A stretch of DNA of 39,093 nt, taken from positions 1-39,093 of the forward strand of contig JAYTXW010000177.1 of assembly GCA_043742745.1 (NCBI GenBank), read 5' to 3'. This DNA is from Sphingomonadaceae bacterium (lineage in GTDB: Bacteria > Pseudomonadota > Alphaproteobacteria > Sphingomonadales > Sphingomonadaceae). A program made the translations under genes and the position numbers. This document shows positions 632 through 39,093 of this stretch, one piece after another; within the stretch, counting starts at the first letter, position 1, and every line of letters starts with the position of its first letter. Under the pieces are notes generated by a model that worked only from the letters and a program-made list of their open reading frames with translations, had not been told where the DNA came from and ran no database searches.

Positions 632-3217
632 TCAGAAGTTCACTCGTGCACGCAAGCCGAATTGACGTTTGTCAGCCGCAAAGGTTGCCAACGACAGGCC
701 GCCTGCAGGTAGTGCTTGCGTATCACCACTTGATTGAGCCGATTGCACTGACTCATTGTCAAAGGTATTGTTTACGTAAAACAGCACCGTATATTTTGTA
801 TTTTCGATGCCTAGCTGAAAATTTACATTGGCATATGGGCTGTAATAGTACTGGTTCGTATTATCCTGATAGCGGCGACTACGGTATTGGACATCACCGT
901 TTGCTAGCAAATTCCAGTCACTTATCAGCGGCCGACGATAATTGAGCGATGCGACGAACGAATGACGTGCCGCGCCTTCAAGGCGGTTGCCGTCGAGGTT
1001 GACGTAGCAGCCCTTGAAGTTGCCGACCGTCTTGATCGTGCACCCGCCCGCGAGCGCGATCGTGATCGGGCTCGTCTGCGGGATGTTGAAGTCGATGTAT
1101 TTGGCGTCGAGATAGGTGTAGCCGAAGCTCAGGTTTAGGCCGCGCGTGAGTAGCGCCGCGATCTCGAGTTCGGCCCCGTCGACCCGCGCGCCGCCGATAT
1201 TCTGGATCAGGCTGACGTTACCCTGCGGATTGACCGAGAAGGGCACCGGCACGAGCGTCGATTCCTGCTTGTCCTTGTAATCCTCGCGGAAGATGGCGGC
1301 GTTGAACTGCAGCCGCCGGTCGAACAAGGTCGATTTGAAGCCCAGTTCGTAGTTGTACAGCTTTTCGGTACCGAAGGCCGCGTCTTGCGGGTTGGGCGTC
1401 TGCACCTGCGACAGGCCCGCGGGTTTGATCCCCTTCGCGAATGAGAAATAGGCGAGCAGGTTGGGATTGAACTTGTACGTCGCTGTTGCCCGCGGCGCGA
1501 AATAAGTCGTCGCCGTGCTCGCGGTAAACGCGCTGCCGACGAGGGTGAACGGGTAAATGCCGCCTACTGCCGTCTTCGAAATCGCGATGCTCTTGGCGAA
1601 CAGATAATCGTAGGTTTCACGCGCCTCGCGCCCTTCCACCGAGATCGTCAGCTTGTCGGTGATGTCGAACTCCGCGGTGGCATAGGCGGAATAGTGATGG
1701 GTGACGCGCCCCTGGTCCTGCGCCGGGCCGCGCCCGCCGAGCAGCTTGACATCATAATAGATGTTGACGGCCGTCGGCGGCGTGACGTCCGGAGCATTGA
1801 ACCCGGCGTTGGAGATGCTGCCAAGTTTCTGCTGGACATTCTCCCACCAATACAGCCCACCGACCGCCCAGCGGAAGCGATGGGCGCCCTGCTGCCCGAT
1901 CCGGAGTTCCTGACTGAACTGGCGCGTGTGCGTCGTTGCATCAAAGAAGAAGAGTCCGGTCGCGATGTTGCCGGCGGGAACCTCGGCGAGCCCGGTCGAG
2001 CCCGACTGGGTAATCGTCGTCAGCGGGCGCCCGAAGAAATCGGTGTCCTGGACGGAAGTCTGGTGGGAATCGGTGTAGCCGGTCCAAGTCGACAGCTCGA
2101 CGTCACTGAACAGGCCGATCTGAGAGCGAAGGCTGCTCAGCGAGGTCTTCGTGTGCGTCCCCGGAAAGTCGAGCCCGGTCAGCGGATCGGTCGACAGGTT
2201 AACCGTGCCGATACCTTTGCCGAGCAGACCGCGCTTGGCAAAGTAGGCAACCGAACCCAGCGTCGTCTGCGGAGCGCCGATGATGCCGACCTGCTGCCCG
2301 GCGACGTTCGCCGGCAACGCGACCGTCTCACGCTGCAAGACCTCGGGAGCCCCGCCAACATAATATTCGGCGCGCGGCTTATAGGTGTCGTCGGAGTACA
2401 TCGTCCGTGCGATGAACTTGAACCCTTCCCGCGGCTCCCATTTGGCCGCGATCGAGCCGCCTTCCGAACGGTTGCCGCCGATCCGCTTGCCAGTCACCTC
2501 GTTGTTATAAAAACCATCGAAATATGAGTAGAGACCATTGACCCGGACGGCGAGCGTGCTGGTCAGCGGCACGTTGATCGCCGCCCGCGCCTCGTAGAGG
2601 CTATAGGTGGCCGCTTCGCCGCTGACATAGCCTTCGATGCCTTTGGTCGACGGATCTTTGCTGATGTAATTGATCGCGCCGCCGAACGCGACACGACCGT
2701 AAAGCGCCGACTGCGGACCCTTGACGACTTCGATCCGTTCGAGGTCGACGAGCTTGAGGTTGGCAAGGTTGCCGCCGCCCGCCGTCGCGATCGATTCGGT
2801 CGAGATGTCGATGCCGTCGAGCAGGATCCCGACCGGCGGCCGCCCGCGCGTCGAGGGCAGTCCCCGGATGCTCGGCCGCACGTCCTGTTGGACGAAGCCC
2901 TTGTCGACGAAAAGTCCGGGAGTGTACCGCGCTACGTCGCCAACGTCGCGGATACCCTTGTTGAGGATGTTTTCGGCGGACAGGGCGGTGACCGTCAGCG
3001 GGACATTCTGCAGGCTTTCGGCCTTGCGCCGCGCGGTGACGGTGATGTCCTGGAGCTGATCGTCGGCGTCGTTCGCGGCGATCTGCGCGGGTGGCGTGTC
3101 CGTCGGCGCGGTCGCCTGTGCGAACGCAGGCGCGGCAATCATCGCCAAGGTCAGTGCGAGAAGCGACGATGCGCCGTTCAGCCGGACATTCCTGCAAAAA
3201 TCAGGTTGGTGCGTCAT
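632..3217 (-). CDS. TonB-dependent receptor
   Basis: 861 aa. Signal peptide (AAPAFA/QA), TonB-box-like DITVTARRK, plug motifs (SIRG, ERIEVVKGPQSALYG..AFGGAINYI), barrel motif E...NYELGFKS, C-terminal Phe (RVNF). Confidence 0.96.
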   Translation of the reverse strand: MTHQPDFCRNVRLNGASSLLALTLAMIAAPAFAQATAPTDTPPAQIAANDADDQLQDITVTARRKAESLQNVPLTVTALSAENILNKGIRDVGDVARYTPGLFVDKGFVQQDVRPSIRGLPSTRGRPPVGILLDGIDISTESIATAGGGNLANLKLVDLERIEVVKGPQSALYGRVAFGGAINYISKDPSTKGIEGYVSGEAATYSLYEARAAINVPLTSTLAVRVNGLYSYFDGFYNNEVTGKRIGGNRSEGGSIAAKWEPREGFKFIARTMYSDDTYKPRAEYYVGGAPEVLQRETVALPANVAGQQVGIIGAPQTTLGSVAYFAKRGLLGKGIGTVNLSTDPLTGLDFPGTHTKTSLSSLRSQIGLFSDVELSTWTGYTDSHQTSVQDTDFFGRPLTTITQSGSTGLAEVPAGNIATGLFFFDATTHTRQFSQELRIGQQGAHRFRWAVGGLYWWENVQQKLGSISNAGFNAPDVTPPTAVNIYYDVKLLGGRGPAQDQGRVTHHYSAYATAEFDITDKLTISVEGREARETYDYLFAKSIAISKTAVGGIYPFTLVGSAFTASTATTYFAPRATATYKFNPNLLAYFSFAKGIKPAGLSQVQTPNPQDAAFGTEKLYNYELGFKSTLFDRRLQFNAAIFREDYKDKQESTLVPVPFSVNPQGNVSLIQNIGGARVDGAELEIAALLTRGLNLSFGYTYLDAKYIDFNIPQTSPITIALAGGCTIKTVGNFKGCYVNLDGNRLEGAARHSFVASLNYRRPLISDWNLLANGDVQYRSRRYQDNTNQYYYSPYANVNFQLGIENTKYTVLFYVNNTFDNESVQSAQSSGDTQALPAGGLSLATFAADKRQFGLRARVNF

Positions 3218-3506
3218 TTTCAGTAGCCCCTCAATAAATCAGCTGAACCGTTCGCTGCTCGATCATTTTACGATGTCGGCGACGGCCAAATTCTCCCTGC
3301 CCACTGCCGCTAATTGGGCCCGTCTTCCCAGCTTGCTGGACCGAGCGGGGGAGCCAACTTTCCGACTACCCGGTTGATGTACCGAGGGCCAAGAACGACC
3401 GTACAGATCGATTCGAATTTATTCGCGGTTCGGATAGTGCTGCGTGGTCGGGCCGACGGCGCGCAGAGGGCGTATAGAAAGCGAAGGTGAACGCACGGAG
3501 ATTGGC

Positions 3507-3971
3507 ATGTTTCATCGGGCGTACCGGCTGGCCGCAGTTGGGTTAATGCTCGCAACCGTCGTCGCAACATCGGCGCAGCAGCCTGACGCTCGCGCGCAGG
3601 TGCGCGCGTTAATCTGGCAAAAAGAGCTGACAAATTACCGGGGTCGCGCGACCGTGGCCGGGCTGCAAAGCTATATCGACAGCATCGGCGACGATTACCT
3701 CGTCTGGCCGCCGGGCCGCGATCGGCCGATCCACCCGGTGGAACTCAAGGCACAAAATGCTGCGGCGGCAAAAGGCCCTCGGGAAAAGCTCTCGTTGACC
3801 CTGACCGATTTCACCATGCACGACGGCACGGCGATCATCTTCTACAGTTCCCACAAGACGATGACCGCGACCGGCGATCCTGTCGACGAGCGCTACGACA
3901 CGATCCACGTCTGGTCGCTGTACGGGACCGAATGGAAACTCATCGGCGGGCTGGCGCGCCGGACCAGTTGA
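3507..3971 (+). CDS. Exported NTF2-like/DUF4440 (SnoaL-fold) protein, paralogue 1
   Basis: ATG 3507 with GGAG upstream; hydrophobic signal peptide; C-terminal TAIIFY...HVW....EWKL typical of DUF4440-like proteins; homologous to 34055-34519 and 35905-36369. Confidence 0.8.
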   Translation: MFHRAYRLAAVGLMLATVVATSAQQPDARAQVRALIWQKELTNYRGRATVAGLQSYIDSIGDDYLVWPPGRDRPIHPVELKAQNAAAAKGPREKLSLTLTDFTMHDGTAIIFYSSHKTMTATGDPVDERYDTIHVWSLYGTEWKLIGGLARRTS

Positions 3972-3983: not shown

Positions 3984-5063
3984 CTACGGCGCGACGACCG
4001 GGCGAGTGCTAATTTTCAGGATGGTGATGCGGTCGCCGAACGACGTGCCGAGATAGATTCGACCACGCTTGACGACGCCGACCGAAAAACCGGGCGTCGC
4101 GATGCCGTCGCTGACGGCGATCGTGGTTAACCGAGAACGATCGAAATCGATTCGCGCCGCCATCGCTGGAAATCCGCAGCCAGGGCGGCGGAACTCGGGG
4201 CACCGTCGTGTGCTCACCAGCGGCTGGCCGGTCCCGCCGACGACGACGAACGTCCCGTCGCGCCGCGCGGTGACGTTATCGGGCTGCATCGCCACGGCCA
4301 GCCGGGTCCGCCCGCTACCATCGGGTCGGATACGATTGATGGCGTGGCCATAGGTTTCTGCGAAGGCCAGCCAGCGACCGTCCGGCGAGGCGTCAACTCC
4401 GTTGGGAAAGCTGCCTTCGCTGTGCAGGATCCGCTTCCAACCGGTCACCGCCGACCAGCGCACGAGAAAACCAGTCGGCATCCCGGCGCGGAACGCCGCC
4501 TCGCGTTCGTCGCGCGGAATGCCGGGATCGAACATGTGCGTGGCAGCAAACCCGCCGTCGGGCAACGGGGCGATATCGTTGAGGAAATAGGGCACCGGTG
4601 CCGCGACGCAGCCACTCCGCGTCAAACGCGGCTCGCCGCCGACGAACGCGATCCGGATGGTTTCGACCGCGTCGTTGGCAACCGCGGTGCCAGGCGGCGC
4701 GCCGTGAAGAATCCTCACCAGACGGAAGCCGCCGGTGTCGCGGCGGATGCCGATGCCGCCGCCCCGTGCCGCGGCGAAGCAGGCGGGGCCGAGCGCGTCG
4801 GACCGGAAGCGGACGATCGTCCCGGTCGTGGTGTTGAAGGCCGACAGTCCCGAACTGCCGTCGACCGCCCCTTCGCTGATCATCAACCACGGCGTGCCGG
4901 CAAGATCGGCGATATCCTCCGGGTCGGCGAAGCTACACACCTGCGCCGTCGTGCAGGCACCGACCGCATGGGCGACACCCCCTTCGGCCAGCGGCGAGCT
5001 CGCCTTGCCGGATAAGGCAAACAGCCCCAGCGCCGCGCCCGCCAGCCCCGCGCGGAGCATCAC
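3984..5063 (-). CDS. Exported SMP-30/gluconolactonase/paraoxonase-like six-bladed beta-propeller (lactonase/arylesterase-like)
   Basis: Signal peptide; PEDI, LNDIA, FPNGV and PDNV motifs match the E/N/N/D metal ligands of this family; stop-start overlap with the upstream SDR. Confidence 0.8.
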   Translation of the reverse strand: MMLRAGLAGAALGLFALSGKASSPLAEGGVAHAVGACTTAQVCSFADPEDIADLAGTPWLMISEGAVDGSSGLSAFNTTTGTIVRFRSDALGPACFAAARGGGIGIRRDTGGFRLVRILHGAPPGTAVANDAVETIRIAFVGGEPRLTRSGCVAAPVPYFLNDIAPLPDGGFAATHMFDPGIPRDEREAAFRAGMPTGFLVRWSAVTGWKRILHSEGSFPNGVDASPDGRWLAFAETYGHAINRIRPDGSGRTRLAVAMQPDNVTARRDGTFVVVGGTGQPLVSTRRCPEFRRPGCGFPAMAARIDFDRSRLTTIAVSDGIATPGFSVGVVKRGRIYLGTSFGDRITILKISTRPVVAP

Positions 5064-5860
5064 AACTGGTCGCGATACGGCGAGAGAATATCGCGGGGCG
5101 GCTGCATGGCGGCTCGCCGGCGGATCTTTGTCTTCGTCAGCCAGGTGAAGACCCGACCTCTGCGATCGTTGGTGTCAATGATCCGTGCCGCCCACCGCCC
5201 CGTCGTCGCCGGGTGATCGCCGATGATGTTGACGACCTTTTCGCGTGCCGGGCGCGCGTCGCGCGGGGTACGGGCGTGTTCGCGCAGGAAGCCTTCGGTG
5301 ATGACCAGCCCCGGGCTGAGAGCGGCGACGAGGATCGGGCTGCCGGCCAGTTCAGCGGCGAGTGACCGGGTCAGGAAGGTGACGGCCGCCTTCGACGTGG
5401 CGTAACCCGCCATGCCCGGCACCGGCACGCCGTCGGCCCCGGCCCCGAGCATATTGTAGATGGCACCGCCACGCGTCGTCATCCCCGCAACGGCCACCTG
5501 GCAGCCGAGCAGCGTGCCGACGAGATTTATATCGAGCATTCGCGTAAAATCGGTCGCGGCGATAGTCGATACCGACTGTCCGGTTAGGGCCAGCCCGGCG
5601 TTGTTGATCCAGACATCGATCGCGCCGAACGCGTGATGGGCCGCGCGCCACAGGTCCTCGACCTGCTCGCGCGAAGTGACGTCGCAGCCGAAGCCGACCG
5701 CGCGCGCGCCGGTAGCCGGCATCGCCGCTGCACAGCTTTGCGCTTCGACGGTGTCGGGAGCAGAGATCGCGACGTTGATCCCTCGGGCGAGCAGGGCCTC
5801 GGCAAGGGCCCGGCCGATGCCCTTCGTGCTGCCGGTGACGACCGCGGTCTTCACCGGCAT
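5060..5860 (-). CDS. Short-chain dehydrogenase/reductase
   Basis: TGSTKGIG cofactor motif, WINNAG, catalytic YATSK. Confidence 0.93.
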   Translation of the reverse strand: MPVKTAVVTGSTKGIGRALAEALLARGINVAISAPDTVEAQSCAAAMPATGARAVGFGCDVTSREQVEDLWRAAHHAFGAIDVWINNAGLALTGQSVSTIAATDFTRMLDINLVGTLLGCQVAVAGMTTRGGAIYNMLGAGADGVPVPGMAGYATSKAAVTFLTRSLAAELAGSPILVAALSPGLVITEGFLREHARTPRDARPAREKVVNIIGDHPATTGRWAARIIDTNDRRGRVFTWLTKTKIRRRAAMQPPRDILSPYRDQL

Positions 5861-6801
5861 TCCTCAAGGGCCTTGCCAGCGGCGTTGCGGGCACTGTCGG
5901 TCGTCGGTGCGCGACCCGCGAGGGCATCGGCGAACAGCGCGAGGCTTGCGTCGCGAACGAGCGCGAGGCGGCCCCGGTCAGCGTCCTCGACCCCGACACG
6001 CCTGGGATCGACGATTCCCCCGAGATAATGGCGCGCGCCCATCATGGTGATCAGACAGGTCGCGGTACTTCGGCTCTTCCGGTAGACGTCGGCATGCCAG
6101 TCGGCGTCGCGCACGGTCATCACCTTGCTATCGTCGCTCGATCCCACGATCACCAGCAGCGGGCCCCGCAACGCTGCGAGGTCGACCGAAAGAAACCCGG
6201 CGCGCGCGCGGAACGCTGGGCTGAGATCGTCACCGCCCGACCCCGGCGGGGACAACAGCAACGCTCCGACGAAACGCGGATCGCTGAAGTCTTCGAACGC
6301 GGTCGCGTTCCACACGCGCATACCGATTAGCGCGGCGATCGTGTGACCGCCGAAACTATGCCCCGCCGCGAGCAGGTGCCGCCGGTCGAGATGTCGGCGC
6401 AATGCCGGCACCGCGGCTTCGACGACCGCGAGATAATCCGCGATCCGTCGCATATCGACAATTCGCGTGCGCCAAAGGTCGGCCGGGGGCGGCACCGCCG
6501 GCGCGAAGCCATCGACCGGAGCATCGTCGTGGTCCGGCTGCAGTACGACAAAACCGTGCTCCGCCCACCAGCTAACGAGTGGCTCGTAGGTGGTGCGCGA
6601 GAGCCCCGAGCCATGCGAGAACAGGATCACCGGCAGACGTCCACGGATAACCGCCGGCGCGGTGACCCGGACCAGCAATAAGTGTCCCCGCGCATCCGCC
6701 GGAATGGTCACCGGATCGGTGATTGTCACCGCGATCCGCGCCGCGGCGGAGGCGCACGCGATCAGCGCGGCGAACGCGACGATGCCGCACAGCCTAAGCA
6801 T
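5851..6801 (-). CDS. Exported alpha/beta hydrolase (chlorophyllase/PAF-acetylhydrolase-like)
   Basis: Start reassigned to ATG 6801 (MLRLCGIVAFAALIACASAAA signal peptide; overlaps upstream stop); PVILFSHG, GFVVLQPDH, nucleophile elbow GHSFGG, GARH. Confidence 0.85.
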   Translation of the reverse strand: MLRLCGIVAFAALIACASAAARIAVTITDPVTIPADARGHLLLVRVTAPAVIRGRLPVILFSHGSGLSRTTYEPLVSWWAEHGFVVLQPDHDDAPVDGFAPAVPPPADLWRTRIVDMRRIADYLAVVEAAVPALRRHLDRRHLLAAGHSFGGHTIAALIGMRVWNATAFEDFSDPRFVGALLLSPPGSGGDDLSPAFRARAGFLSVDLAALRGPLLVIVGSSDDSKVMTVRDADWHADVYRKSRSTATCLITMMGARHYLGGIVDPRRVGVEDADRGRLALVRDASLALFADALAGRAPTTDSARNAAGKALEECR

Positions 6802-8257
6802 AAAGCCATTCGCGGAAGGTCGATCCGGCGACGCGCGGCGGCAGCATCGCCGGCAGCCCGGTCTCATCGGCCACTTCGCGCAATACTTTGGCGGCGGTTC
6901 GAACCACCTCCTCCTCGTCCCACTGCGTCGAGCGACCACCGGCGATCAATCGTTTGCCGGCAACGAAGACGTCTTCGACTTGGGCCGACTGCCCGCCCCA
7001 GACCAGTGCGCCGAGCGCGCGGCGCCCGTCGTACGTCGGCTGCATCTCGGCGCGCGTCATGTCGACCACGACGCAGTCCGCGGCCTTGCCGACCTCGAGC
7101 GAGCCCGCGATGTCGTCGGTGAACAGCGTGCGCGCGCCGCCCAGCGTCGCCATTTCGATCATCCGCTCGCTTGTCGCCCAATGCTCTATTGCCGGACGCG
7201 AGCGACCGGCAGCGACGTCGGCCTTGACGGCGAGGTTCTGCGCCAGGATTGCGTGTCGCATTACTTCGAACGGGTTCTGGCAATCGGTAACCAATGGCGC
7301 GTCGGTGCCGAGCGCCGGGATGATCCCGCGCGCAAGATATTCGTGAAGGGCGAGACCGGCACCGTCGAAAAAGCGCAACATCGGGACCAACGCCATCCGG
7401 CAGTCGTACTCGGCGAGGAGCGAAAATTCGTGCGACCGCAGGTTGACGCCTTTGCCGGCATAGATCGGTCCCCGGTCGAGCAGGCCGAAGCTGCGATAGT
7501 AATCGACCTGTCCGCCGTCGAAGCCGCGCGCGGCCAGCGCCGCACCGCGGCTGTTGTCGGTCATATCGACCCCGAAGCGGACGCCAATGCGCGCCGCACC
7601 CTCGTGGATACGGCGCATATCTTCGGGGTCGGCGAGGAAATTGAAGTTGAGAAACCCCGCCGCCACGCCGATGCGGTCAGACGCGAAGCGCCCCGCAAGA
7701 CGCTCGACCTCGATCAGCCCGCGCTCGGCGGTTTCACGACCGCGAGCGGGAACGCCCGGCCCGTTGACGATGCAGCGGCACAGATAGCCTCGCATCCCCG
7801 AATCGGTGAGCGCCTGCCATGAGCCATCGGCACTGTCAGTGCGGACGTTGGTGAAATGCTCATCGTGGGTCGCGGTATATCCGGCCTTGAGCAGCTCGAG
7901 CGCATGCAGGCGGACGAGCGCGTAGCTGCGCTCGGCATCGAGCCGATCGCACACCGTGTACAGTTGCGTCAGCAGAGCCCGCACGGCGGTCGGGATGTCG
8001 AGCACCGGCCAGCGGTCGTCGTTATAGCCGCGAAACGCGATCTGGATCAGGTGGTTATGCGCATTCGCCATCCCCGGCAGGATCATCTTCCCCGCCGCCT
8101 CGATGACATTGTCGGCTGTAACCGTGCAGTCGACGGTTCGCCCGACAGCGAAGATCCGATCGTCCCGAAAGGCGATATAGCCATCGGTGAAGGCCCGCCG
8201 CTCGGCATCGACGGTGATGACGTACCCGCCGCGAATCAGCGTGTCGGCGTGGTCCAT
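6794..8257 (-). CDS. Amidohydrolase superfamily protein (TRZ/ATZ, deaminase-like) with atypical metal site
   Basis: LPGMANAHNH (HxH), LGTD, ATLGGAR, GSLEVGKAAD; the later His motifs are replaced (see findings). Confidence 0.9.
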   Translation of the reverse strand: MDHADTLIRGGYVITVDAERRAFTDGYIAFRDDRIFAVGRTVDCTVTADNVIEAAGKMILPGMANAHNHLIQIAFRGYNDDRWPVLDIPTAVRALLTQLYTVCDRLDAERSYALVRLHALELLKAGYTATHDEHFTNVRTDSADGSWQALTDSGMRGYLCRCIVNGPGVPARGRETAERGLIEVERLAGRFASDRIGVAAGFLNFNFLADPEDMRRIHEGAARIGVRFGVDMTDNSRGAALAARGFDGGQVDYYRSFGLLDRGPIYAGKGVNLRSHEFSLLAEYDCRMALVPMLRFFDGAGLALHEYLARGIIPALGTDAPLVTDCQNPFEVMRHAILAQNLAVKADVAAGRSRPAIEHWATSERMIEMATLGGARTLFTDDIAGSLEVGKAADCVVVDMTRAEMQPTYDGRRALGALVWGGQSAQVEDVFVAGKRLIAGGRSTQWDEEEVVRTAAKVLREVADETGLPAMLPPRVAGSTFREWLYA

Positions 8258-14692: not shown

Positions 14693-14727
14693 CGTCTCCT
14701 CCGGCAGGTCTGCCGCTGCTTGATCGC

Positions 14728-15639: not shown

Positions 15640-15738
15640 GATGCTCGCTGGGCATACTGGCATCCCGTTGTCAGTGGTGCAGGCTAGTCTGCAAGATGCT
15701 CCCCTACACTGCGAGACACTTTCATGATCGACAGGCGA

Positions 15739-26872: not shown

Positions 26873-26898
26873 TAATTGCATTAACTCTATAACAATTG
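26873..26898. promoter_or_regulatory. Candidate GntR operator (AATTG-N14-CAATT) in the divergent lyase/CoA-transferase promoter
   Basis: TAATTG-cattaactctataa-CAATTG; same arms and spacing as 28884-28909. Confidence 0.6.
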
Positions 26899-28071: not shown

Positions 28072-28074
28072 AGC

Positions 28075-28882: not shown

Positions 28883-28910
28883 CTAATTGGTATATAAATA
28901 GTCCAATTAG
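28883..28910. promoter_or_regulatory. Candidate GntR operator, inverted repeat CTAATTGG-N12-CCAATTAG
   Basis: Perfect 8-bp arms in the AT-rich gntR/leuC-like divergent promoter, adjoining the RBS. Confidence 0.7.
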
Positions 28911-32292: not shown

Positions 32293-32690
32293 GCAATTTC
32301 GACAAATTCAAGAACATTCCCGAAGGGGTCGTTGATAAAGAGCGCGCGACCGAACAACTGGCCGACTTCCAAGACAATTTCGATCCGGCGGTCATTTAGC
32401 ACAGCGCGACAGCCATCTAAGTCGCTCGTCGCAAAGGCGACGTGCTTATGGCCGTGGATCTTCAGGTCGCCGCGCGGGTCGCGTCGGCTTTCCGCCATCG
32501 CCTCCGAACCCGCGACCTCGAACACCTCGAGACGCATCCCGGCCCGGTGCAGAAAGGCGACCTTGGCTCCAGCCGCACCGATCTCCCATTCCTGCTCCAC
32601 GGTGAAATCCAGAACCCCGCCGTACCAGCGGATCGCTTCGTGCAGGTTGGGCACCGACAGGGCAACGTGATGTAATCCGGCAAGCTGCAC
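32265..32690 (-). CDS. VOC/glyoxalase-family protein
   Basis: HHVALSV, LEVFE, HVAF, DPFGN.LEF give the H/E/H/E metal ligands; 3' end overlaps the convergent flavoprotein gene by 28 nt. Confidence 0.9.
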   Translation of the reverse strand: MQLAGLHHVALSVPNLHEAIRWYGGVLDFTVEQEWEIGAAGAKVAFLHRAGMRLEVFEVAGSEAMAESRRDPRGDLKIHGHKHVAFATSDLDGCRAVLNDRRIEIVLEVGQLFGRALFINDPFGNVLEFVEIAQGDGVIES

Positions 32691-32693: not shown

Positions 32694-33992
32694 TCAGATC
32701 GGCTTCACGCGCAGCGTGGTTTCCATCGACGTGATCGCCTCGCAGCCGTCTTTGCGGACGATCATCATATCCTCGACGTGCGTCGTGCCCCAGCCGAACT
32801 CGTGATATGGCATGTCGAGGGTGAAAACCATGTTCTCCTCAAACTGCATGGGGTGATGACCGGGTAGCTCCGCCCCGACCGAGACAGGATGGTCGGTGTG
32901 CTCGATGCCTACCGAATGCGGCCCCGCAATGACGAAGCCGGGAAACCCCTCGTCATGGACAGCCTTCAAGGTCAAATCGACGATCTCCTTGAACGTTCTA
33001 CCTGGGCGAATATTTTCGTATGCGATCTGAAGCGCGCGGCTGACCGCCTTGGTCCGCCCCAGCATTTCCGCGGTGGGCTCACCGAAAAAAACCGAGCGAC
33101 CGACATCGCCTCGATATTCTTTCCATGAACCAACAGAATCAAGCTTCATGAGCTCATTTGCCTCGACTTTGCCGGTGGCCAGACCGCGAATGTTAGCGAT
33201 GATCCATTCTGACCGGCCGCCTTGTTCGGCCATCGCGATCGCATGGATGCGGCCGATCTCGTCGAGAGGCATGCCGATTTCCATTTGGTCAATCACCGCA
33301 TTAATCGCTGTCTCGCTCATTCGACCGGCGACCTTCAGCAGCTCGATCTCGTCCGGACTTTTTATCATCCGGATCTCCTTGAAAATGTTGAGCGCATCGC
33401 ATCCAGCGAGGTCTTCAAGACCGATAGCACTTAGCCATCCGATGATGCGTGGATCGTCGAAGCCAAGCTTTCCTTTCTCAAGTCCGGCCGTCCGGATCGC
33501 AGCGGCGAGGGCGCGCGTGCTGGTGAGTGCAGCACCGCCGCGATGTTTGGCATAGCGTTCGAGCAGCTGCAGGTCGCGCGGAGCCATCGTCGCTCCAGCG
33601 CGGGTTGGATAAGGCGTCAATGGCTCGTCGGGCAGGACCTCACCAGACACGATCCGGTCGCCGGTGTCGGCCTCGTCGATCTCTTCGGTCGAGAACTCGT
33701 AGTCGCGCGGAGGGATCGCCTTCGGCGCGATGCGGGTGACATAGCTCTGGACGTTCGGCATCCAGGTCGGCTTGTGCTCGAGGTGATAGACCCCGGTTCC
33801 CGGCATGATCAGCGCCGCTGGCGCCGACTCGTCGCGCGGCAGTAGGGCATAGAGCGTGTAGTTGCGCGACATCAGGAACATAGGTCCCCAATAGTCGGAC
33901 AGATAATAGATGTTCTCGGGGAACGCGGCGACGAGGCCGTCGAGGCCGTGGCGATCCATGACGTGATTGGCGCGCTCGCGGTTCAGCAGCAT
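32694..33992 (-). CDS. M24-family (Xaa-Pro peptidase/creatinase-fold) hydrolase
   Basis: ENIYYLS, RMIKSPDEI, LD...YRGDVGR, HSVG, TLDMP, HVED; start reassigned to ATG 33992. Confidence 0.9.
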   Translation of the reverse strand: MLLNRERANHVMDRHGLDGLVAAFPENIYYLSDYWGPMFLMSRNYTLYALLPRDESAPAALIMPGTGVYHLEHKPTWMPNVQSYVTRIAPKAIPPRDYEFSTEEIDEADTGDRIVSGEVLPDEPLTPYPTRAGATMAPRDLQLLERYAKHRGGAALTSTRALAAAIRTAGLEKGKLGFDDPRIIGWLSAIGLEDLAGCDALNIFKEIRMIKSPDEIELLKVAGRMSETAINAVIDQMEIGMPLDEIGRIHAIAMAEQGGRSEWIIANIRGLATGKVEANELMKLDSVGSWKEYRGDVGRSVFFGEPTAEMLGRTKAVSRALQIAYENIRPGRTFKEIVDLTLKAVHDEGFPGFVIAGPHSVGIEHTDHPVSVGAELPGHHPMQFEENMVFTLDMPYHEFGWGTTHVEDMMIVRKDGCEAITSMETTLRVKPI

Positions 33993-34054: not shown

Positions 34055-34519
34055 CTATTGCGGGTTCATCGGGCGTGACATGCTGGCGAGTACCTTCCAC
34101 TCGCCGTGGTCAAGTTGCCAGACATGGATGTTATCGTAGGTCTGGTCGACCGGTGTGCCATCAGCGAGGCGGGTCCGGTGATTTTGGTAATAAATGATTG
34201 CGGTATCGCCCGACAGGGAGAAATCTCGAAAGCTGATCTGGATGACCTCGTGATCGTGCCCGCGAAGCGCAGCGCTGCTGTTGCGAAGCTTGTCGACACG
34301 GAACGGCTCGGGAGTGCCGGCCGTCCATGCGAGGAAGTTCGTCGACACGTTCTCGAGGTAGAAATCGATCGATCCGTGGCTCCGACCTTCGTAAATTGCC
34401 ATTTCCTTGGCCCAGATCGCGGCGCGTGCCTTGTCGACGGGGTTGTCGGCTGCCCCAGCGGCGGCGAGTGCGCCGCTGCCCAGGAGGCATGTAGCGACTA
34501 GGACCACGATGCGACGCAT
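34055..34519 (-). CDS. Exported NTF2-like/DUF4440 protein, paralogue 2
   Basis: ATG 34519 after GGAG; signal peptide; AIWAKE..IY.GR, GDTAIIYY..H.TR..DG, HVW....EWKV. Confidence 0.82.
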   Translation of the reverse strand: MRRIVVLVATCLLGSGALAAAGAADNPVDKARAAIWAKEMAIYEGRSHGSIDFYLENVSTNFLAWTAGTPEPFRVDKLRNSSAALRGHDHEVIQISFRDFSLSGDTAIIYYQNHRTRLADGTPVDQTYDNIHVWQLDHGEWKVLASMSRPMNPQ

Positions 34520-34738: not shown

Positions 34739-35785
34739 ATGACGATATCTACCCGCCTGTCGCTCGTGGCCCTTTTGCTTGCTCTTCTGCCCTGCGCAGT
34801 ACGAGCGCAGGCTCTGGGCGACGGCGAAGGCGCGTTTTCGGCCATCCGCCATCCGTCACCGTCCGATTATGCGCGACTTGGCGATTGGGCGGAATGGCGC
34901 GGAGGGTCGCGGGACGCACCGGTCGACCTGTTCTTCATTCAGCCGACAACGTATATTTCGGATCACTGGAACCAAGACCTCGCTGACACGAAGACCGATG
35001 ACTGGACCCGGGCAACCGTGGCAGTAAGACAGATCGGGGCGTTCGCGGCGTGTTGCAGGGTCTATTCGCCGCGCTATCGCCAAGCTTCGAGCCGGGCCTT
35101 CGCCGAAATGGCGGGGGATGGGGCGAAGGCGTACGATCTCGCCTACTTGGACGTTCGCGCCGCCTTTAGATACTATTTGGCGAACGAGAACCGCGGTCGG
35201 CCGTTCGTACTCGTCGGGCACAGCCAGGGCGCGCTCCACGTCATGCGGCTTTTGCGCGAGGAGATCGACAATCGGCCGATCGGTCGGCAACTGGTAGTCG
35301 CCTATGCGCCCGGTCTCGGCATCCCGGTCGGAACTTTCGGGACCGAGCTCAAGACGGTGGTTGCCTGCGACACACCTGATCGTACCCGCTGCGTCGCGAG
35401 TTGGAATAGCTTCCTCGGCAATGCGGATGTCGCGCCCTACGTCGCGCGATCTGCTCGACCGTGGGTGGCGAAGCATGGACCCGACGGGGCCGCCTTACTC
35501 TGCGTCAATCCGTTGACTTTTGACGTGCGCCGCCCCGCCGCCGACGCGGCCGGCAACCTTGGCGGCATCGTCCTCCCGACCGCTGCGGATGGCCCGGACG
35601 CGGCTGTTATTCCCGGTGCAGCCGGCGCAACATGCGATGGCGGCGTGCTTCGGGTCACCACAAGCTATGCGCTTCTCACGCTACCGGGCGGTAGCTTGCA
35701 CTATTACGATATTCCCCTATTCTGGACCAACCTTCGCGCCAACGTCGCTGTCCGCATTGCGGCAGCATCACGAGTGCATCGTTGA
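34739..35785 (+). CDS. Exported DUF3089-like alpha/beta hydrolase
   Basis: Signal peptide; VDLFFIQPTT, YSPRYRQ, AY.DV.AAF..YL...N.GRPFVLVGHSQG, LCVNPL, LH.YD. Confidence 0.88.
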   Translation: MTISTRLSLVALLLALLPCAVRAQALGDGEGAFSAIRHPSPSDYARLGDWAEWRGGSRDAPVDLFFIQPTTYISDHWNQDLADTKTDDWTRATVAVRQIGAFAACCRVYSPRYRQASSRAFAEMAGDGAKAYDLAYLDVRAAFRYYLANENRGRPFVLVGHSQGALHVMRLLREEIDNRPIGRQLVVAYAPGLGIPVGTFGTELKTVVACDTPDRTRCVASWNSFLGNADVAPYVARSARPWVAKHGPDGAALLCVNPLTFDVRRPAADAAGNLGGIVLPTAADGPDAAVIPGAAGATCDGGVLRVTTSYALLTLPGGSLHYYDIPLFWTNLRANVAVRIAAASRVHR

Positions 35786-35904: not shown

Positions 35905-36369
35905 ATGCTGCTTTTCGCTCTCGCTACAGTCGCTGCGATGAGCGCGAATACGATGGTGCCGGCTCCACCCGACCAGGCGAAGGCGCAGTCCGAGATTTGG
36001 GCGAAGGAAAAAGCAATTTATGCTGCCCGGGGTGTCGGCAACCTCAAGCCTTATATCGACAATGTCGCGAGCAATTACCTGGCGTGGCCGCCTTTCAGTC
36101 CAGTACCCACGGGGGTCGGGGCGCTGCAGCAAGAGCAGCCGAAGATGGCAGTCGAAAACAAAGAGTTACTTGAGATGGAGTTCGTCTCTTTTGCGCTCAA
36201 TGGCGACGCAGCTATCATCTACTACAAGACGCACCGCACCCGGCTGCCCGACGGTAGGCCGGCTGACGAGCGCTTTGAAGTTACACATAGTTGGGTTAGC
36301 GAAGCAGGGCAGTGGAAGGTTTATGGGGGCATGGCGCGCGCGCAGCCAGACCGGTCCAGCGCAAAGTGA
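35905..36369 (+). CDS. Exported NTF2-like/DUF4440 protein, paralogue 3
   Basis: Signal peptide; EIWAKE..IY..R, YIDNV...YLAWPP, GDAAIIYY..H.TR..DG, HSW....QWKV.GGMAR. Confidence 0.85.
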   Translation: MLLFALATVAAMSANTMVPAPPDQAKAQSEIWAKEKAIYAARGVGNLKPYIDNVASNYLAWPPFSPVPTGVGALQQEQPKMAVENKELLEMEFVSFALNGDAAIIYYKTHRTRLPDGRPADERFEVTHSWVSEAGQWKVYGGMARAQPDRSSAK

Positions 36370-36417: not shown

Positions 36418-37932
36418 GTGGCCGACCCCATCTTAAGCTATGTCGCACCCGTAACCGCAGCTGGGCGTGCGCTCATCGACGGCGCACCGGATCATCCCTT
36501 TCTGATAAACGGTGTCTGGCGAGAAGGGGCGGATGGGTGGATCGACACGGTGGATCCGGCGACCGGCCGTCTACTCGGGCGGGTGGCGGCAGCAGGCAGT
36601 GCCGATGTAAATTCAGCAGTGGCGGCGGCACGCGCTGCGCTCGATGGGCCGTGGTCGAGAATGGTCCCTAGTGAGCGCGCGCGGTTGCTACTGCACGTCG
36701 CCGAATTGATTGAGGCGGAGCTGGATTCGCTGTCCGAGGTGGAGAGCTTGGACCAGGGTAAACCGTTTTCAGTCTCACGCTGGGCCGAGGTGCCGTCGGC
36801 CGCCAAACAGTTCCGTTTCTTTGCTGGTCAAGCCATGACGATCGAGGGGCGAACGATTACCCCTTCGATCACGTATCAGCCGCAGGACCGGGATGTGCAC
36901 GCCTGGACGTTACGCGAGCCGGTGGGCGTCGTCGCGGCGATCGTGCCGTGGAACTCCCCACTCGTACTGACCGCCATGAAAGTCGCGCCAGCGCTGGCGT
37001 GCGGCTGTACGGTTGTGCTCAAGCCCGCCGAGAACACTTCGCTTACGGCGCTCAGGCTTGGTGCGCTGATTACAGAGGCAGGTATGCCACCTGGGGTTTT
37101 CAATATCGTCACAGGACTTGGACATACGACAGGCGCAGAACTGGCCGCTCACCCCGACGTAGACAAGGTGGCGTTCACGGGTTCGACTAGAACAGGACGC
37201 GATATAATACGTGCGTCCGCAGGAAATTTAAAGCGAGTTACACTTGAACTGGGGGGTAAATCTCCAGCTATAGTAATGGGAGATGCTGATCTCGAATTGG
37301 CGATTCCGGGCATTGCCAACGCTATATTTTTTAATGCTGGTCAAGTATGTGTCGCAAATTCGCGCGCCTACATCCACGATTCAATTTACGACAGGGTAAT
37401 CGCAGGTGTCGCCGCCTATGGCTCTGAAATGGCCCTTGGCCACCAACTGAACCCCGAGACGAGAATGGGTCCTCTGGTTTCGCAGCAACAGGCGGCGAGT
37501 GTGGCGAGTTTTATCGAGGGGGCGAGGCGTGAAGGGGCCAGCATCGTGTGCGGCGGCGAGCGGCTCGGTAGCGAAGGTACGTTTATGGCACCAACGATCG
37601 TGGCCGACGTAGGCGGGAGTCAAGCGATCTCGCGAGAAGAAGTTTTTGGCCCTGTGCTCGTGGCCCACCGCTTCTCGGATCTAGACGATGCCATGGCACA
37701 AGCGAACGATACCGAATACGGTTTGGCCGCCAGCGTGTGGACGCGCGATTTTTCAACTGCACATCGTGTCTCTCGAAAGTTGCGCGCGGGCACGGTGTGG
37801 ATCAACACGCATTCGATGTTCGACGCGTCGCTGCCCATCGGCGGTGTCAAGCAATCGGGATACGGCCGGGATAGCGGCCTGCTTGCGATGGACAACTATC
37901 TGGACTGGAAAACAGTTTGCGCCGTGGTGTGA
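36418..37932 (+). CDS. NAD(P)-dependent aldehyde dehydrogenase
   Basis: GTG 36418 after GAGGAG; VPWN, LKPAE, FTGS, LELGGKSP, NAGQVC, EEVFGPV, GG.KQSG.GR. Confidence 0.95.
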   Translation: MADPILSYVAPVTAAGRALIDGAPDHPFLINGVWREGADGWIDTVDPATGRLLGRVAAAGSADVNSAVAAARAALDGPWSRMVPSERARLLLHVAELIEAELDSLSEVESLDQGKPFSVSRWAEVPSAAKQFRFFAGQAMTIEGRTITPSITYQPQDRDVHAWTLREPVGVVAAIVPWNSPLVLTAMKVAPALACGCTVVLKPAENTSLTALRLGALITEAGMPPGVFNIVTGLGHTTGAELAAHPDVDKVAFTGSTRTGRDIIRASAGNLKRVTLELGGKSPAIVMGDADLELAIPGIANAIFFNAGQVCVANSRAYIHDSIYDRVIAGVAAYGSEMALGHQLNPETRMGPLVSQQQAASVASFIEGARREGASIVCGGERLGSEGTFMAPTIVADVGGSQAISREEVFGPVLVAHRFSDLDDAMAQANDTEYGLAASVWTRDFSTAHRVSRKLRAGTVWINTHSMFDASLPIGGVKQSGYGRDSGLLAMDNYLDWKTVCAVV

Positions 37933-37969
37933 CCTCATCGCCTCGGCGATTTAAGCACCAGATGCGGTC

Positions 37970-39093
37970 GTGACTGCAACGCCGTCTACGGTCGAGCTTG
38001 CGGTCGTCGACCTGCCGTTTCCCAGCCAGTTCCGCGCGTGGTGGGTGGTTTCGGCGATGTTCATGGCCTCGATTGTATCGGTGGTTGATCGCGGAATCCT
38101 AACCCTCGTCGTCGATCCCGTCCGTCATGATCTCGGCATCTCCGATGTACAGATCAGTCTGTTGCAAGGTCTGGCATTCGGCATTTTTTACGCCGTGGCG
38201 GGGGTTCCGCTCGGGCTGCTAGCGGACCGCTTCTCACGCCGCCGCCTGCTAACCGGCGGCATCGTCATATGGAGCGCGGCGACGTTCCTCGGCGGTCTCG
38301 CGACAAGCTTTGGCGAGCTATTCACGGCACGGCTGTTGGTTGGCCTCGGAGAGGCGGCGCTAGCACCCTGCGCCGTCTCGATGATCGGCGACATGTTCCC
38401 CGCTCATTGCCGCGGACGCCCCATCAGCATCTATCTGCTGGGCCAGTCGCTCGCCGGCGGATTGTCGGTATTGCTGACGGGCTGGGCACTGAGCGGCGTC
38501 CCCGCCGGTCGTTTTGCGTGGATAGGCCCGCTAGATGACCTTGCCCCATGGCGTGTCGCCTTTATCCTGGCCGGGATGGCCGGGTTGCCGGTGATTCTGA
38601 TGCTGCTGTCGTACCGCGAACCCATTCGTCGCGGTGCGCGTCTCGAGGGTAATGCGAATTCGCTGACGCAGGCGATTGGCTATTTGCGCCGCAACTGGAC
38701 AGTCTTCGTGCCATTTTACGCAGGCTTCGCGATGCTGGTTATGATGGCGTATAGCATCAACGCTTGGGGCGCGACGTACTTAATGCGCCAATTCAGCCTT
38801 GCCCCGGCGCAGGTCGGCAAGTGGCAGGGAACTGTCGGTATCGTCCTCGGCACGTTGGGCGCGCTTGCCGCCGGGTTCGCCGTCGACCAGGTTTCGCGGC
38901 GGATCCCGCCCGGGGGCAAGCTATTGTTCCTGGTTTGCGTTGCCTTCTTGATGATCCCGGCGACGCTGACCGTCTTTATGCCGACGCCAATGACCGCCGT
39001 CGCGACGCTCGGTTTCGTTACTTTTTTCATGCCTGTCATCGGCACCGCGATGGTTACCGGCATTCAGGAAATGGTGCCGAGCAACATGCGGGG
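37970..39093 (+). CDS. MFS transporter (spinster-like), runs off the window end
   Basis: Absent from the ORF track because there is no stop in the window. The frame from GTG 37970 reads ...AWWVVSAMFMASIVSVVDRGILTLVVDPVRHDLGISDVQISLLQGLAF...GLLADRFSRRRL...ARLLVGLGEA. Confidence 0.9.
   Translation, partial: MTATPSTVELAVVDLPFPSQFRAWWVVSAMFMASIVSVVDRGILTLVVDPVRHDLGISDVQISLLQGLAFGIFYAVAGVPLGLLADRFSRRRLLTGGIVIWSAATFLGGLATSFGELFTARLLVGLGEAALAPCAVSMIGDMFPAHCRGRPISIYLLGQSLAGGLSVLLTGWALSGVPAGRFAWIGPLDDLAPWRVAFILAGMAGLPVILMLLSYREPIRRGARLEGNANSLTQAIGYLRRNWTVFVPFYAGFAMLVMMAYSINAWGATYLMRQFSLAPAQVGKWQGTVGIVLGTLGALAAGFAVDQVSRRIPPGGKLLFLVCVAFLMIPATLTVFMPTPMTAVATLGFVTFFMPVIGTAMVTGIQEMVPSNMR

Follow-up and report, generated by a model that had tools for sequence, protein, structure and literature searches.

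Which compound is broken down by the many enzymes encoded on contig JAYTXW010000177.1 of a Sphingomonadaceae bacterium, and do these enzymes form one pathway? The window analysed here is this whole contig (C177, 39,093 nucleotides), which a preliminary description had regarded as a catabolic island for a cyclic amide or N-heterocyclic substrate. No contig is longer in its genome bin, which is 80% complete and comprises 2.1 Mb. We found that the region is a mosaic of a conserved core of seven genes and swappable accessory modules. The core encodes the PuuE-like proteins PDA2 and PDA3, the isochorismatase-family amidase Isoch2, an HMG-CoA-lyase-family enzyme (HMGL), a family III CoA-transferase (CaiB/BaiF) and a LeuCD-type hydratase. 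The best explanation for the gene set as a whole, which we favour with some reserve, is that core and accessory modules catabolise one- and two-ring pyrrole fragments of haem, bilins and chlorophyll. The enzyme activities named throughout are predicted from families, residues, linkage and co-occurrence.

The core was traced in GTDB genomes with PDA3, for which the scan gave at least 559 confirmed matches; 80 loci were taken, the 62 of at least 19 kb were counted, and the 18 under 19 kb were dropped. Isoch2, PDA3 and PDA2 (hereafter the trio) stood together in all 62 of these full-length sphingomonad-type loci, where the figure for PDA3 itself holds by construction because it served as the anchor. 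HMGL accompanied the trio in 58 loci, CaiB, LeuC and LeuD in 55 each and a GntR-type regulator in 31, and every other window gene was found, at 35% identity, in 14 loci or fewer. The clustering of the core is beyond chance, and the co-occurrence in other genomes that the preliminary description had anticipated is indeed seen. The trio was also intact in 15/15 and 20/20 gammaproteobacterial loci (the set of 15 excludes the short loci L142 and L149 and loci split into halves). The core is common to many water, soil and plant bacteria, and Sphingomonas sp. YR710, Novosphingobium soli CCM 7706 and Sphingobium sp. TomTYG65 are carriers available in culture; PDA3 had 27 plasmid matches, 15 of them on conjugative plasmids, and its family comprises at least 2688 homologues at E 1e-60 or better. 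The core features are as follows.

23392..24309, minus strand: PDA2, PuuE-like, Thr at the catalytic His position; 62/62 loci.
24309..25226, minus strand: PDA3, PuuE-like hydrolase and predicted imide-opening enzyme (E40, H119, H251); PuuE 3cl6 at E 3e-26.
25216..25905, minus strand: Isoch2, isochorismatase-family amidase, triad D43/K137/C170; 62/62 loci; best solved match 4l07 (E 1e-28), which we take to be the P. putida maleamate amidase.
25918..26853, minus strand: HMGL, HMG-CoA-lyase-family enzyme; NF004283 at 271.9 bits, cut-off 246; 58/62 loci.
26888..26896, minus strand: operator-like site (TTG-N-TATA) in the spacer of the divergently oriented HMGL and CaiB.
26926..28071, plus strand: family III CoA-transferase (CaiB/BaiF); PF02515; 55/62 loci.
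28075..28842, minus strand: GntR/HutC-type (UTRA) regulator; PF00392, PF07702; 31/62 loci.
28886..28894, plus strand: second such site, in the spacer of the divergently oriented gntR and leuC.
28920..30305, plus strand: LeuC-like hydratase large subunit; NF009116 over cut-off; 55/62 loci.
30302..30913, plus strand: LeuD-like small subunit; PF00694; 55/62 loci.

The two putative operator-like sites are the only matches to TTG-N-TATA in the window, compared to 0.06 expected for a pattern that was itself derived from these two sites, and of 41 homologous CaiB-HMGL spacers, 36 contain a motif that agrees with it. A promoter and terminator scan of positions 22300-29100 gave results near chance.

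In total, 38 open reading frames (ORFs) occupy positions 632..39093, arranged as 10 same-strand blocks, the last ORF (an MFS transporter) being open at the contig end. The earlier count of about 37 tightly coupled genes was thus close in number, and the coupling itself was borne out, as 20 of the 28 same-strand junctions are of 25 bp or less and mostly overlaps. A wider comparison of about 50 kb around the core in five other sphingomonad-type genomes showed that, from 40% identity upwards, 32 of the 38 genes find a partner in one genome or more, and 15-21 of them in each single genome. No 40% partner near the core was found in these genomes for the TonB-dependent receptor (TBDR), the NTF2-like proteins a and b, the SGL-like propeller, the PAF-AH-like hydrolase and one MFS transporter. 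The notion of a single linear pathway of 37 genes was not supported, since no relative shares more than 21 of the 38 genes and the modules reassort. Independent genomes repeatedly show two main accessory modules next to the core. Module 1 comprises an IclR regulator, a monooxygenase, a "racemase", a third PuuE-like protein (PDA1), an ICL-family lyase and a second amidase (Isoch1); module 2 comprises methyltransferases with small partners, a GPH transporter, a RidA protein, short-chain dehydrogenases (SDRs) and an amidohydrolase.

The catalytic residues were read from sequence. PDA3 has PuuE allantoinases as its nearest solved relatives, and its Glu40, His119 and His251 are conserved in 124-125 of 125 homologues. 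PDA1 also keeps Glu/His/His, and the equivalent of PuuE H259 is present in 8/8 PDA1 and 125/125 PDA3 homologues. At the catalytic His position, the window PDA2 carries Thr, as do 98 of 123 homologues; 23 have His. Of the three PuuE-like proteins counted earlier, one needs correction as an enzyme, since PDA2 (23392-24309) lacks the catalytic His, so that only PDA1 and PDA3 keep it. PDA2 is likely to be a non-catalytic or altered partner of PDA3. The resemblance to PuuE allantoinase and related imidases (PDB 3cl6, 1z7a; BpIH, in an excerpt of PMC11424739) lies in the fold and in the Glu/His/His of PDA1 and PDA3. However, the TIGR03212 scores (150.6 bits for PDA1, 90 and 115.1 for the other two) are far under the cut-off of 424.6, the gene context is different, and PDA3 has in PDA2 a constant partner that usually lacks the catalytic His. 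Moreover, the Trp of the Glu-His-Trp triad, as given for PuuE allantoinase in the same excerpt, is absent from all three proteins, with Asn in PDA3, Gln in PDA1 and Met in PDA2. With these scores and without this Trp, an identity as allantoinase was rejected. The Asp-Lys-Cys triad is kept in both amidases, LeuC and HMGL retain their family motifs, and the ICL-family lyase has a KRCGH loop. The window LeuC is distinct (47%) from a second LeuCD pair on contig C219, which is probably the housekeeping one.

That the core converts a cyclic imide into a substituted maleate, and this in turn into pyruvate and an acyl-CoA or acid, is in our estimation quite probable. Because a maleamate-type amidase, a LeuCD hydratase and lyase families are combined, a route from a half-amide via a maleate and a 2-methylmalate to pyruvate is suggested, and an imide opening before the half-amide is suggested because PuuE-fold proteins can open cyclic imides, as reported for BpIH (excerpt of PMC11424739). 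PDA3, with PDA2 as a probably non-catalytic partner, would open the imide ring to the half-amide, Isoch2 would release ammonia to give a methyl-alkyl-maleate, and LeuCD would hydrate the latter to a 2-methylmalate. This would be activated by the CoA-transferase and cleaved by HMGL to pyruvate and an acyl-CoA. The sequence of ring opening, deamidation to a substituted maleate, hydration and cleavage that had been envisaged from the start fits the logic of the conserved core.

A LeuCD-type hydratase and, after it, an ICL-family lyase that yields pyruvate and an acid are known from the 2,3-dimethylmaleate hydratase DmdAB and 2,3-dimethylmalate lyase Dml of Eubacterium barkeri, to which the 2-methylisocitrate lyase PrpB may be added. 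The window shares with them a LeuCD-type Fe-S hydratase and an ICL-family lyase with a KxCGH loop, the latter scoring higher against PrpB (173 bits) than against 2,3-dimethylmalate lyase (142 bits). It differs in its aerobic context, in having no nicotinate genes, in that the commoner cleavage route is CoA-dependent, and in its predicted products, which are glutarate or butyrate, not propionate or succinate. In the (R)-citramalate route of Chloroflexus aurantiacus, a family III CoA-transferase acts with an (R)-citramalyl-CoA lyase of the HMG-CoA-lyase family. The same two families (PF02515; NF004283 over its cut-off) stand here after a LeuCD-type maleate hydratase and, in contrast to that route, are coupled to imide and amide hydrolases. 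By analogy, the core may work like the lower half of the maleamate pathway joined to the cleavage logic of DmdAB/Dml and of citramalyl-CoA, with a PuuE-fold imidase in front.

The genes for HMGL, CaiB and a flavocytochrome-c/TcuA-like flavoprotein were not named in the preliminary description, which had assigned the main cleavage step to the ICL-family lyase. This assignment was not supported, since an ICL-type gene, like the flavoprotein gene, lies near the core in 9/62 loci, compared to 55-58/62 for the CoA-transferase and HMGL. In loci without HMGL and CaiB, their place is often taken by an ICL lyase together with a hydratase of LeuCD or homoaconitase type; some loci combine the two lyase types and have two hydratases. 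This substitution of two unrelated lyase types across lineages fits one 2-methylmalate-type intermediate. Compact versions consist of the trio, a hydratase, an ICL lyase, a TcuA-like flavoprotein, a GntR regulator and a TRAP or acid-type MFS transporter, a makeup that points to a small carboxylic acid as the substrate. The smallest complete-looking version seen lies, flanked by IS elements, on a conjugative plasmid (L125:7630-23467 in NZ_CP066800.1) and encodes the trio, an MFS transporter, GntR, a hydratase exceeding the homoaconitase-family cut-off, a flavoprotein, an ICL lyase, a porin, ETF, a glutaryl-CoA dehydrogenase and a CoA-transferase. The dehydrogenase, examined in the expectation of glutarate as a product, is an acyl-CoA dehydrogenase matching glutaryl-CoA dehydrogenase at E 1.8e-220, and the CoA-transferase is nearest to succinate-glutarate transferase (542 bits versus a cut-off of 750). 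The genome of the window encodes a 63% glutaryl-CoA dehydrogenase on another contig. Two Sphingomonadaceae plasmids, pJE1 (L126) and pTomTYG65b (L131), share a version of 28 kb that is almost the same in the two and encodes two LeuCD pairs as well as both types of lyase. At its borders stand a VapBC toxin-antitoxin pair and, on pJE1, an integrase. On plasmid pLDW-10 of Arthrobacter crystallopoietes (L127), a distant (43%) PDA pair stands beside a xanthine-dehydrogenase-type complex, an asparaginase and an ABC transporter; this would be a different N-heterocycle pathway.

Which imide, then, is the substrate? Its likely identity is suggested by the company of the genes, and on this basis we regard a tetrapyrrole origin as probable. 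Likely candidates are hematinic acid, methyl-ethyl- and methyl-vinyl-maleimide and related amides. Among the four substrate classes proposed earlier, alkyl-maleimides from tetrapyrrole decay gained evidence through a link to red-chlorophyll-catabolite reductase (RCCR), whereas the other three gained none. The features of module 1 are listed here with an SDR and a PAF-AH/chlorophyllase-like hydrolase.

17941..19134, minus strand: FAD-dependent monooxygenase; PF01494; PnpA 198.6 and HspB 175 bits; RCCR-cluster homologues 331-360 bits.
19256..20002, minus strand: racemase/arylmalonate-decarboxylase-fold protein without catalytic Cys pair (GMS, GTNL).
19995..20633, minus strand: Isoch1, NicF-like amidase, triad D30/K118/C151; PF00857; PDB 26st 153 bits, 3ot4 149 bits.
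20623..21483, minus strand: ICL/PEP-mutase-family lyase, KRCGH loop; PF13714; PrpB 173, 2,3-dimethylmalate lyase 142, RCCR-cluster proteins up to 317 bits.
21483..22400, minus strand: PDA1, PuuE-like hydrolase, Glu/His/His kept; TIGR03212 150.6 bits.
22534..23310, minus strand: IclR-family (MhpR-like) regulator; PF09339, PF01614.
5060..5860, minus strand: SDR1, of a subfamily adjoining bacterial RCCR genes; 187 bits to an RCCR-locus SDR versus 99 to the best solved SDR.
5851..6801, minus strand: alpha/beta hydrolase, PAF-AH/chlorophyllase-like, signal-like N-terminus; PF03403 E 1.6e-9; PF07224 E 2e-7, 30.5 bits, cut-off 26.

The protein at 19256..20002 had been labelled a maleate isomerase. 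This label was rejected, because GMS and GTNL stand where, according to the positions that we assume, the isomerase has its two catalytic cysteines. None of 20 homologues has a Cys pair, most share the GMS and GTNL motifs, and the best alignment to a solved enzyme is that to arylmalonate decarboxylase (43.5 bits).

In genome G517, a protein of the RCCR family (PF06405; E 3e-8 to Arabidopsis RCCR) is encoded about 6 kb from the trio. A test sample of 301 genomes from one gammaproteobacterial order contained PDA3 in 17 genomes and RCCR in 7, and all 7 were among the 17 (0/284 in the others). The 7 carriers span 6 genera and 4 families, and the Fisher test value of 4.7e-10 is overstated since kin are not independent. 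In 4 of the 7, RCCR lies within 50 kb of the trio (about 6, 19, 25 and 49 kb). Of the 301 genomes, 13 encode a member of the Cys-less "racemase" family, among them the 7 RCCR carriers without exception; five more belong to one trio-negative genus (G439, G503, G561, G586 and G610; 52-54%, without trio or RCCR). Homologues of window proteins are encoded near RCCR genes for the monooxygenase (43-45%), the ICL lyase (53-54%), the "racemase" (34-41%), SDR1 (33-41%), Isoch1 (39-42%) and the PAF-AH/chlorophyllase-like hydrolase (26-30%), and 27 of 55 RCCR loci of at least 5 kb have an SDR1 homologue no more than 2.5 kb from RCCR. For four of these enzymes, the scores against RCCR-cluster proteins are about twice or more those against the best solved enzymes (monooxygenase 360 versus 199 bits, ICL lyase 317 versus 173, SDR1 187 versus 99, "racemase" 192 versus 43.5).

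Further pigment-type genes are found near the core. A CpeT/CpcT bilin-lyase-like gene (E 1e-27; 56% homologues in L180 and L301) lies near it, and CpeT-like genes recur beside the same LeuCD-CaiB-HMGL block. In 21 of the 62 sphingomonad-type loci, a DUF3598-like or HbpS-like gene is located within 10 kb. The DUF3598-like protein has features resembling CpeS lyases (0.98, 0.91) with a Pfam match of E 0.006 only, and its gene is also found at a second core copy in the genome of the window, on contig C262. In 11-12 sphingomonad-type loci, the core has as neighbours the genes for a 661-residue OYE/BaiCD-like flavoenzyme (for example L052:17781-19766) and an HbpS-like protein; an identity of the former as bilirubin reductase was rejected (223 bits, cut-off 750). 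Two other neighbours have no Pfam family, namely a 243-residue protein annotated as DUF3108-like (L106:13806-14537; 24 loci) and a 4-helix membrane protein (L056:3362-4090; 13 loci). A DUF1838 plasmid match, followed in view of a cyanobacterial context, is an isolated fragment.

In the plant PAO/phyllobilin pathway (chlorophyllase, PAO and RCCR; PDB 2zxk, 3aga, 3agb), we see a parallel in so far as relatives of the core and of four accessory enzymes occur in bacterial RCCR clusters, which also hold Rieske, hydrolase and SDR genes. However, the plant route ends at linear tetrapyrroles, and the window, which has neither RCCR nor a Rieske oxygenase, is predicted to act downstream. A conserved block at RCCR loci (L146, L152, L161, L167, L170, L174 and L175; metagenome loci L188, L196, L206 and L212) holds genes for an RCCR-like protein, a Rieske oxygenase, an alpha/beta hydrolase, a 369-residue protein without Pfam family, a second, divergent RCCR-like protein (PF06405 E 0.004), a double nitrilase and an SDR. 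This block is a candidate upper pathway for chlorophyll-type pigments.

Several observations weigh against a tetrapyrrole origin. Pfam searches of the window ORFs gave no RCCR, Rieske oxygenase, haem oxygenase or bilin-lyase-type or bilin-binding family. The RCCR profile had no match in the 80%-complete genome of the window and in 50 other trio-bearing, mostly sphingomonad genomes (0/51), with a positive control genome being detected, and 10 of the 17 trio-positive gammaproteobacteria have no RCCR. Among 25 metagenome RCCR loci of at least 10 kb, a count that leaves out 55 of 80 loci under this length, trio genes lay within 10 kb in only 2; SDR1 homologues were present in 11, the "racemase" in 5, the ICL lyase in 3 and the monooxygenase in 2. 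The trio is also frequent in a second order (PDA3 in 45/271 genomes), where it mostly stands alone, with LeuC in 1/20 and HMGL in 2/20 loci (20 of the 45 positive genomes were examined). The trio may be a general imidase cassette serving more than one imide; some alphaproteobacterial plasmids (rhizobial, roseobacter) carry more distant trios beside amidases, hydantoinases and RutA. It should also be noted that plant RCCR is a distant relative (E 3e-8) of the bacterial RCCR-like proteins, whose RCCR-like role is a predicted one, and that the Rieske protein beside them has VanA_C and no PaO-domain match in Pfam. Isoch1 reaches 144 bits against RCCR-cluster amidases versus 149-153 against solved ones, and the HbpS-like family is presumably not haem-specific. 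Lastly, the link to glutaryl-CoA dehydrogenase was seen in 1/11 plasmid loci and in 0/62, 0/15 and 0/20 genome loci.

The lack of RCCR in all 51 trio-bearing genomes of sphingomonad type, the solitary trio in most of the 20 second-order loci and its company of amidases, hydantoinases and RutA on plasmids would suit a different explanation, in which the core chemistry is right but the sphingomonad accessory genes feed another nitrogenous natural product, such as a plant alkaloid or glycoside. A portable cassette would then have several uses, of which that in association with RCCR is one. The window-specific GPH-type transporter, a weak glycosidase-like propeller and the methyltransferases speak for it as well. 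We consider this explanation rather unlikely, since four window accessory enzymes are nearest to RCCR-cluster proteins among all those compared, DUF3598-like or HbpS-like genes are found in 21/62 loci, and CpeT-like genes recur beside the LeuCD-CaiB-HMGL block. The features of module 2, apart from SDR1, are as follows.

6794..8257, minus strand: amidohydrolase (Atz/Trz-like superfamily); PF01979, no NCBIfam over cut-off; 60-64% partners near core in 2/5 genomes.
8260..9621, minus strand: three-domain RidA/Rid-family protein; PF01042 in 3 stretches; 76-78% partners.
9754..10491, plus strand: SDR2, short-chain dehydrogenase; PF13561.
10514..11668, plus strand: MT1, class I SAM-dependent methyltransferase fold with helical N-terminal domain; PF13649; model pLDDT 89.5.
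11665..11964, plus strand: hel1, 99 residues, no known family, overlaps the MT1 stop; no Pfam match; 77 homologues; follows MT1 in relatives.
11971..12234, minus strand: hel2, 87 residues, no known family, coupled to MT2; no significant Pfam match; follows MT2 in relatives.
12231..13283, minus strand: MT2, second methyltransferase-fold protein; PF13649.
13280..14731, minus strand: GPH-family (glycoside-pentoside-hexuronide-like) MFS transporter; PF13347; TIGR00792 216.6 bits, cut-off 231.

Positions 10514-13283 thus hold two convergent pairs of a methyltransferase and a small helical protein, and a related methyltransferase family adjoins the core in 32/62 loci. A fold search with MT1 gave generic methyltransferases only (TMq about 0.4), and the predicted complex of MT1 and hel1 scored 0.21 against a mark of 0.32, which is evidence neither way. 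Any role of the two pairs in the pathway is speculative. In the RidA protein, the Arg of what we take to be the Rid motif is kept in the middle domain only.

A variant of the pyridine (maleamate-type) pathway appears improbable. The HspB/NicC-like monooxygenase would make a methylated 2,5-dihydroxypyridine, the PuuE-like enzymes would open and deacylate it, and the NicF-like amidases would deamidate the product to end at citraconate or dimethylmaleate. Indeed, compared with NicC/HspB, NicX, NicD, NicF/Ami and NicE, the window shares an HspB/PnpA-class flavin monooxygenase, for which HspB is the second-best solved match (175 bits), and NicF/Ami-type amidases with the Asp-Lys-Cys triad, both of which match such structures; the LeuCD and ICL-family lyase pair parallels DmdAB and Dml. 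However, neither a NicAB molybdenum hydroxylase nor a NicX-type ring-cleavage dioxygenase family was found among 39 ORFs (Pfam, NCBIfam), and a Cys-dependent maleate isomerase is missing from the window. The maleate is here predicted to be hydrated and cleaved, not isomerised to fumarate, PuuE-fold hydrolases are added, and the monooxygenase accompanies the core in only 12/62 loci and is much closer to RCCR-cluster proteins.

Catabolism of a purine, pterin or flavin ring (methylated allantoin-like or lumichrome-derived), with the PuuE-like proteins as allantoinases, is very improbable. In its favour, PDA3 is closest to PuuE allantoinases among solved proteins, some homologues bear the label 'allantoinase' at JGI, and the distant homologue on the Arthrobacter plasmid stands beside a xanthine-dehydrogenase-type complex. 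Against this stand the TIGR03212 scores of 90-151 bits, the missing triad Trp, and the absence of uricase, HIU hydrolase, OHCU decarboxylase, allantoicase and xanthine dehydrogenase from the window and from the 32 recurrent neighbour proteins scanned; moreover, ureide breakdown needs no LeuCD, CoA-transferase or HMG-CoA lyase. That catabolic cassettes unrelated to each other were brought together by chance on mobile DNA and have no single function, for which the limit of 21 shared genes, the six genes without partner, a transposase-like fragment and a low GC content might be cited, is hardly credible given that 32 of the 38 genes have partners, in reassorted order, and that both main accessory modules recur beside the core.

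The window also does not belong to the nic, rut, puu or pyridoxine systems, which the preliminary description had likewise not recognised in it, nor to the plant PAO/RCCR pathway: membership tests fail on families or cut-offs, and no published match was found. No window enzyme exceeded the NCBIfam cut-off for pathway-specific families, among them PuuE, RutB/C/D, EutA, DoeA, PrpB and pyridoxal dehydrogenase. The rut pathway was rejected as there is no RutA and RutB, RutC and RutD scored 41.8 versus 378, 78.5 versus 169 and 39 versus 238.5 bits. Likewise rejected were vitamin B6 (pyridoxine) catabolism, with SDR2 at 150.6 bits and a pyridoxal 4-dehydrogenase cut-off of 325, and ectoine utilisation (eut/doe), with EutA at 60.9 versus 318 and DoeA at 51.8 versus 575 and 35.9 versus 613 bits.

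The remaining features of the window were assigned, as were the others, by Pfam and NCBIfam profile searches.

2..307, plus strand: transposase-like fragment at the contig end, which we take to be of IS21 type; PF22483 E 8e-5, below cut-off; no NCBIfam match.
632..3217, minus strand: TBDR, TonB-dependent outer-membrane receptor, 861 residues; PF00593, PF07715; best relative near other core loci 39%.
3507..3971, plus strand: NTF2/DUF4440-like small protein a, signal-like N-terminus resembling its two paralogues; PF14534 E 0.026, weak.
3984..5063, minus strand: SGL/strictosidine-synthase-like beta-propeller, signal-like N-terminus; PF08450 E 5e-5, below cut-off.
14728..15663, minus strand: alpha/beta hydrolase, twin-arginine-like N-terminus (from sequence); PF00561.
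15739..16758, minus strand: putative glycoside-hydrolase-like beta-propeller, weak; PF04041 E 0.067 only; 61% partner near core in G1029.
16772..17944, minus strand: MFS transporter (PRK05122-like); PF07690; NF003477 354.9 bits, cut-off 374.
30883..32292, plus strand: flavocytochrome-c/TcuA-like flavoprotein; PF00890; 9/62 sphingomonad-type loci; constant in compact ICL-type clusters.
32265..32690, minus strand: VOC/glyoxalase-family protein; PF00903.
32694..33992, minus strand: M24 (creatinase/prolidase-like) hydrolase; PF00557; 82-84% partners near core in 2/5 genomes.
34055..34519, minus strand: NTF2/DUF4440-like small protein b; PF14534 E 5.6e-6.
34739..35785, plus strand: DUF3089 hydrolase, signal-like N-terminus; PF11288.
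35905..36369, plus strand: NTF2/DUF4440-like small protein c; PF14534 E 4e-4; 50-58% partners beside core.
36418..37932, plus strand: aldehyde dehydrogenase (ALDH); PF00171.
37970..39093, plus strand: MFS transporter, 3'-open at the contig end; PF07690.

The same searches confirmed the set of C-N-cleaving enzymes reported before (three PuuE-like proteins, two isochorismatase amidases, the amidohydrolase, M24 and the triple RidA), as well as the FAD monooxygenase, LeuC, LeuD, the ICL-family lyase, the uptake and export genes (three MFS transporters and the TBDR) and the two regulators (IclR and GntR). The three NTF2-like proteins are 154-residue paralogues with signal-like N-termini, located at both cluster ends; they are possible periplasmic ligand-binding proteins. 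The flavoprotein is a candidate succinate-to-maleate-type desaturase or reductase.

The designation as an island was borne out in part. With 63.4% GC compared to 66.8% in the genome, C177 has the second-lowest GC content and the fourth most deviant tetranucleotide profile among 71 contigs of at least 8 kb, and the transposase-like fragment is present at its end; however, the fragment is below cut-off and the contig could have been mis-binned. The closest named relatives of the window proteins are from sphingomonads. The second core copy on C262 shows 58-75% identity to the window core and is neighboured by genes for DUF1838, the DUF3598-like protein, a nitrilase, an HpcH aldolase, DUF1330, a methyltransferase with small partner and two TonB receptors. 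The core was found in 3 of 20 same-genus relatives, each time of the C262 type and without a close PDA1 orthologue. Because same-genus relatives have only the C262-type core, C177 is an acquired second cluster or, possibly, a mis-binned contig. Contig C78 of the same genome carries a further PuuE-like gene, HapK-like and PrpD-like genes and two CoA-transferase genes, which neighbour the core in genome G024.

Returning to the catabolism of pyrrole fragments, we propose the following course of events. The TonB receptor and MFS carriers would take up the substrates and exported hydrolases would trim esters. Speculatively, the monooxygenase, the Cys-less "racemase", SDR1, ALDH, the amidohydrolase, M24 and RidA may convert larger fragments into imides. 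Through the core, hematinic acid would give 2-methyl-cis-homoaconitate, 2-methylhomoisocitrate and finally pyruvate and glutaryl-CoA (glutarate), and methyl-ethyl-maleimide would give butyryl-CoA. PDA1, Isoch1 and the ICL-family lyase may form a parallel set for a differently substituted ring, with release of the free acid, and the TcuA-like flavoprotein might, again speculatively, turn saturated (succinimide-derived) acids into unsaturated ones and vice versa. The many C-N hydrolases would suit BOX compounds, which have an amide in a side chain. Excerpts of PMC7318184 and PMC12860425 describe hematinic acid, maleimides, propentdyopents and BOX compounds as chlorophyll and haem oxidation products in leaves, herbivores and sediments, and the PMC7318184 excerpt puts chlorophyll turnover at 10^12 kg a year. 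The documented end products of chlorophyll in leaves and sediments are dipyrroles, hematinic acid and maleimides.

No genes for the consumption of dipyrroles, hematinic acid or maleimides, and no description of the present gene set, were found in the full-text literature searched, most subscription journals and supplements being outside its reach, so that a published pathway could be missed. The pre-PcyA clusters in the excerpted part of PMC10151467 are a different gene set. Each step of the route has precedent, and the assembled pathway and its likely substrate appear to be undescribed. A broader view, for and against which we see the balance as even, is that bacteria mineralise tetrapyrroles by a widespread pathway, so far undescribed, of which the cluster forms the lower half. 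Marine gammaproteobacteria with RCCR- and Rieske-type genes would open chlorophyll-type macrocycles, whereas sphingomonads such as the present one would skip this step and scavenge the fragments (bilins, phyllobilins, dipyrroles and maleimides). From these, ammonia, pyruvate and glutaryl- or butyryl-CoA would be recovered by a PuuE-fold imidase of two subunits, an amidase, a hydratase and either of two lyases. The cluster supplies named, easily expressed candidate enzymes and defined small-molecule substrates, which makes the microbial fate of haem and chlorophyll rings testable and has a bearing on the use of maleimides as sediment biomarkers. A family with at least 2688 members, now labelled 'polysaccharide deacetylase' or 'allantoinase', would also gain an assigned function.

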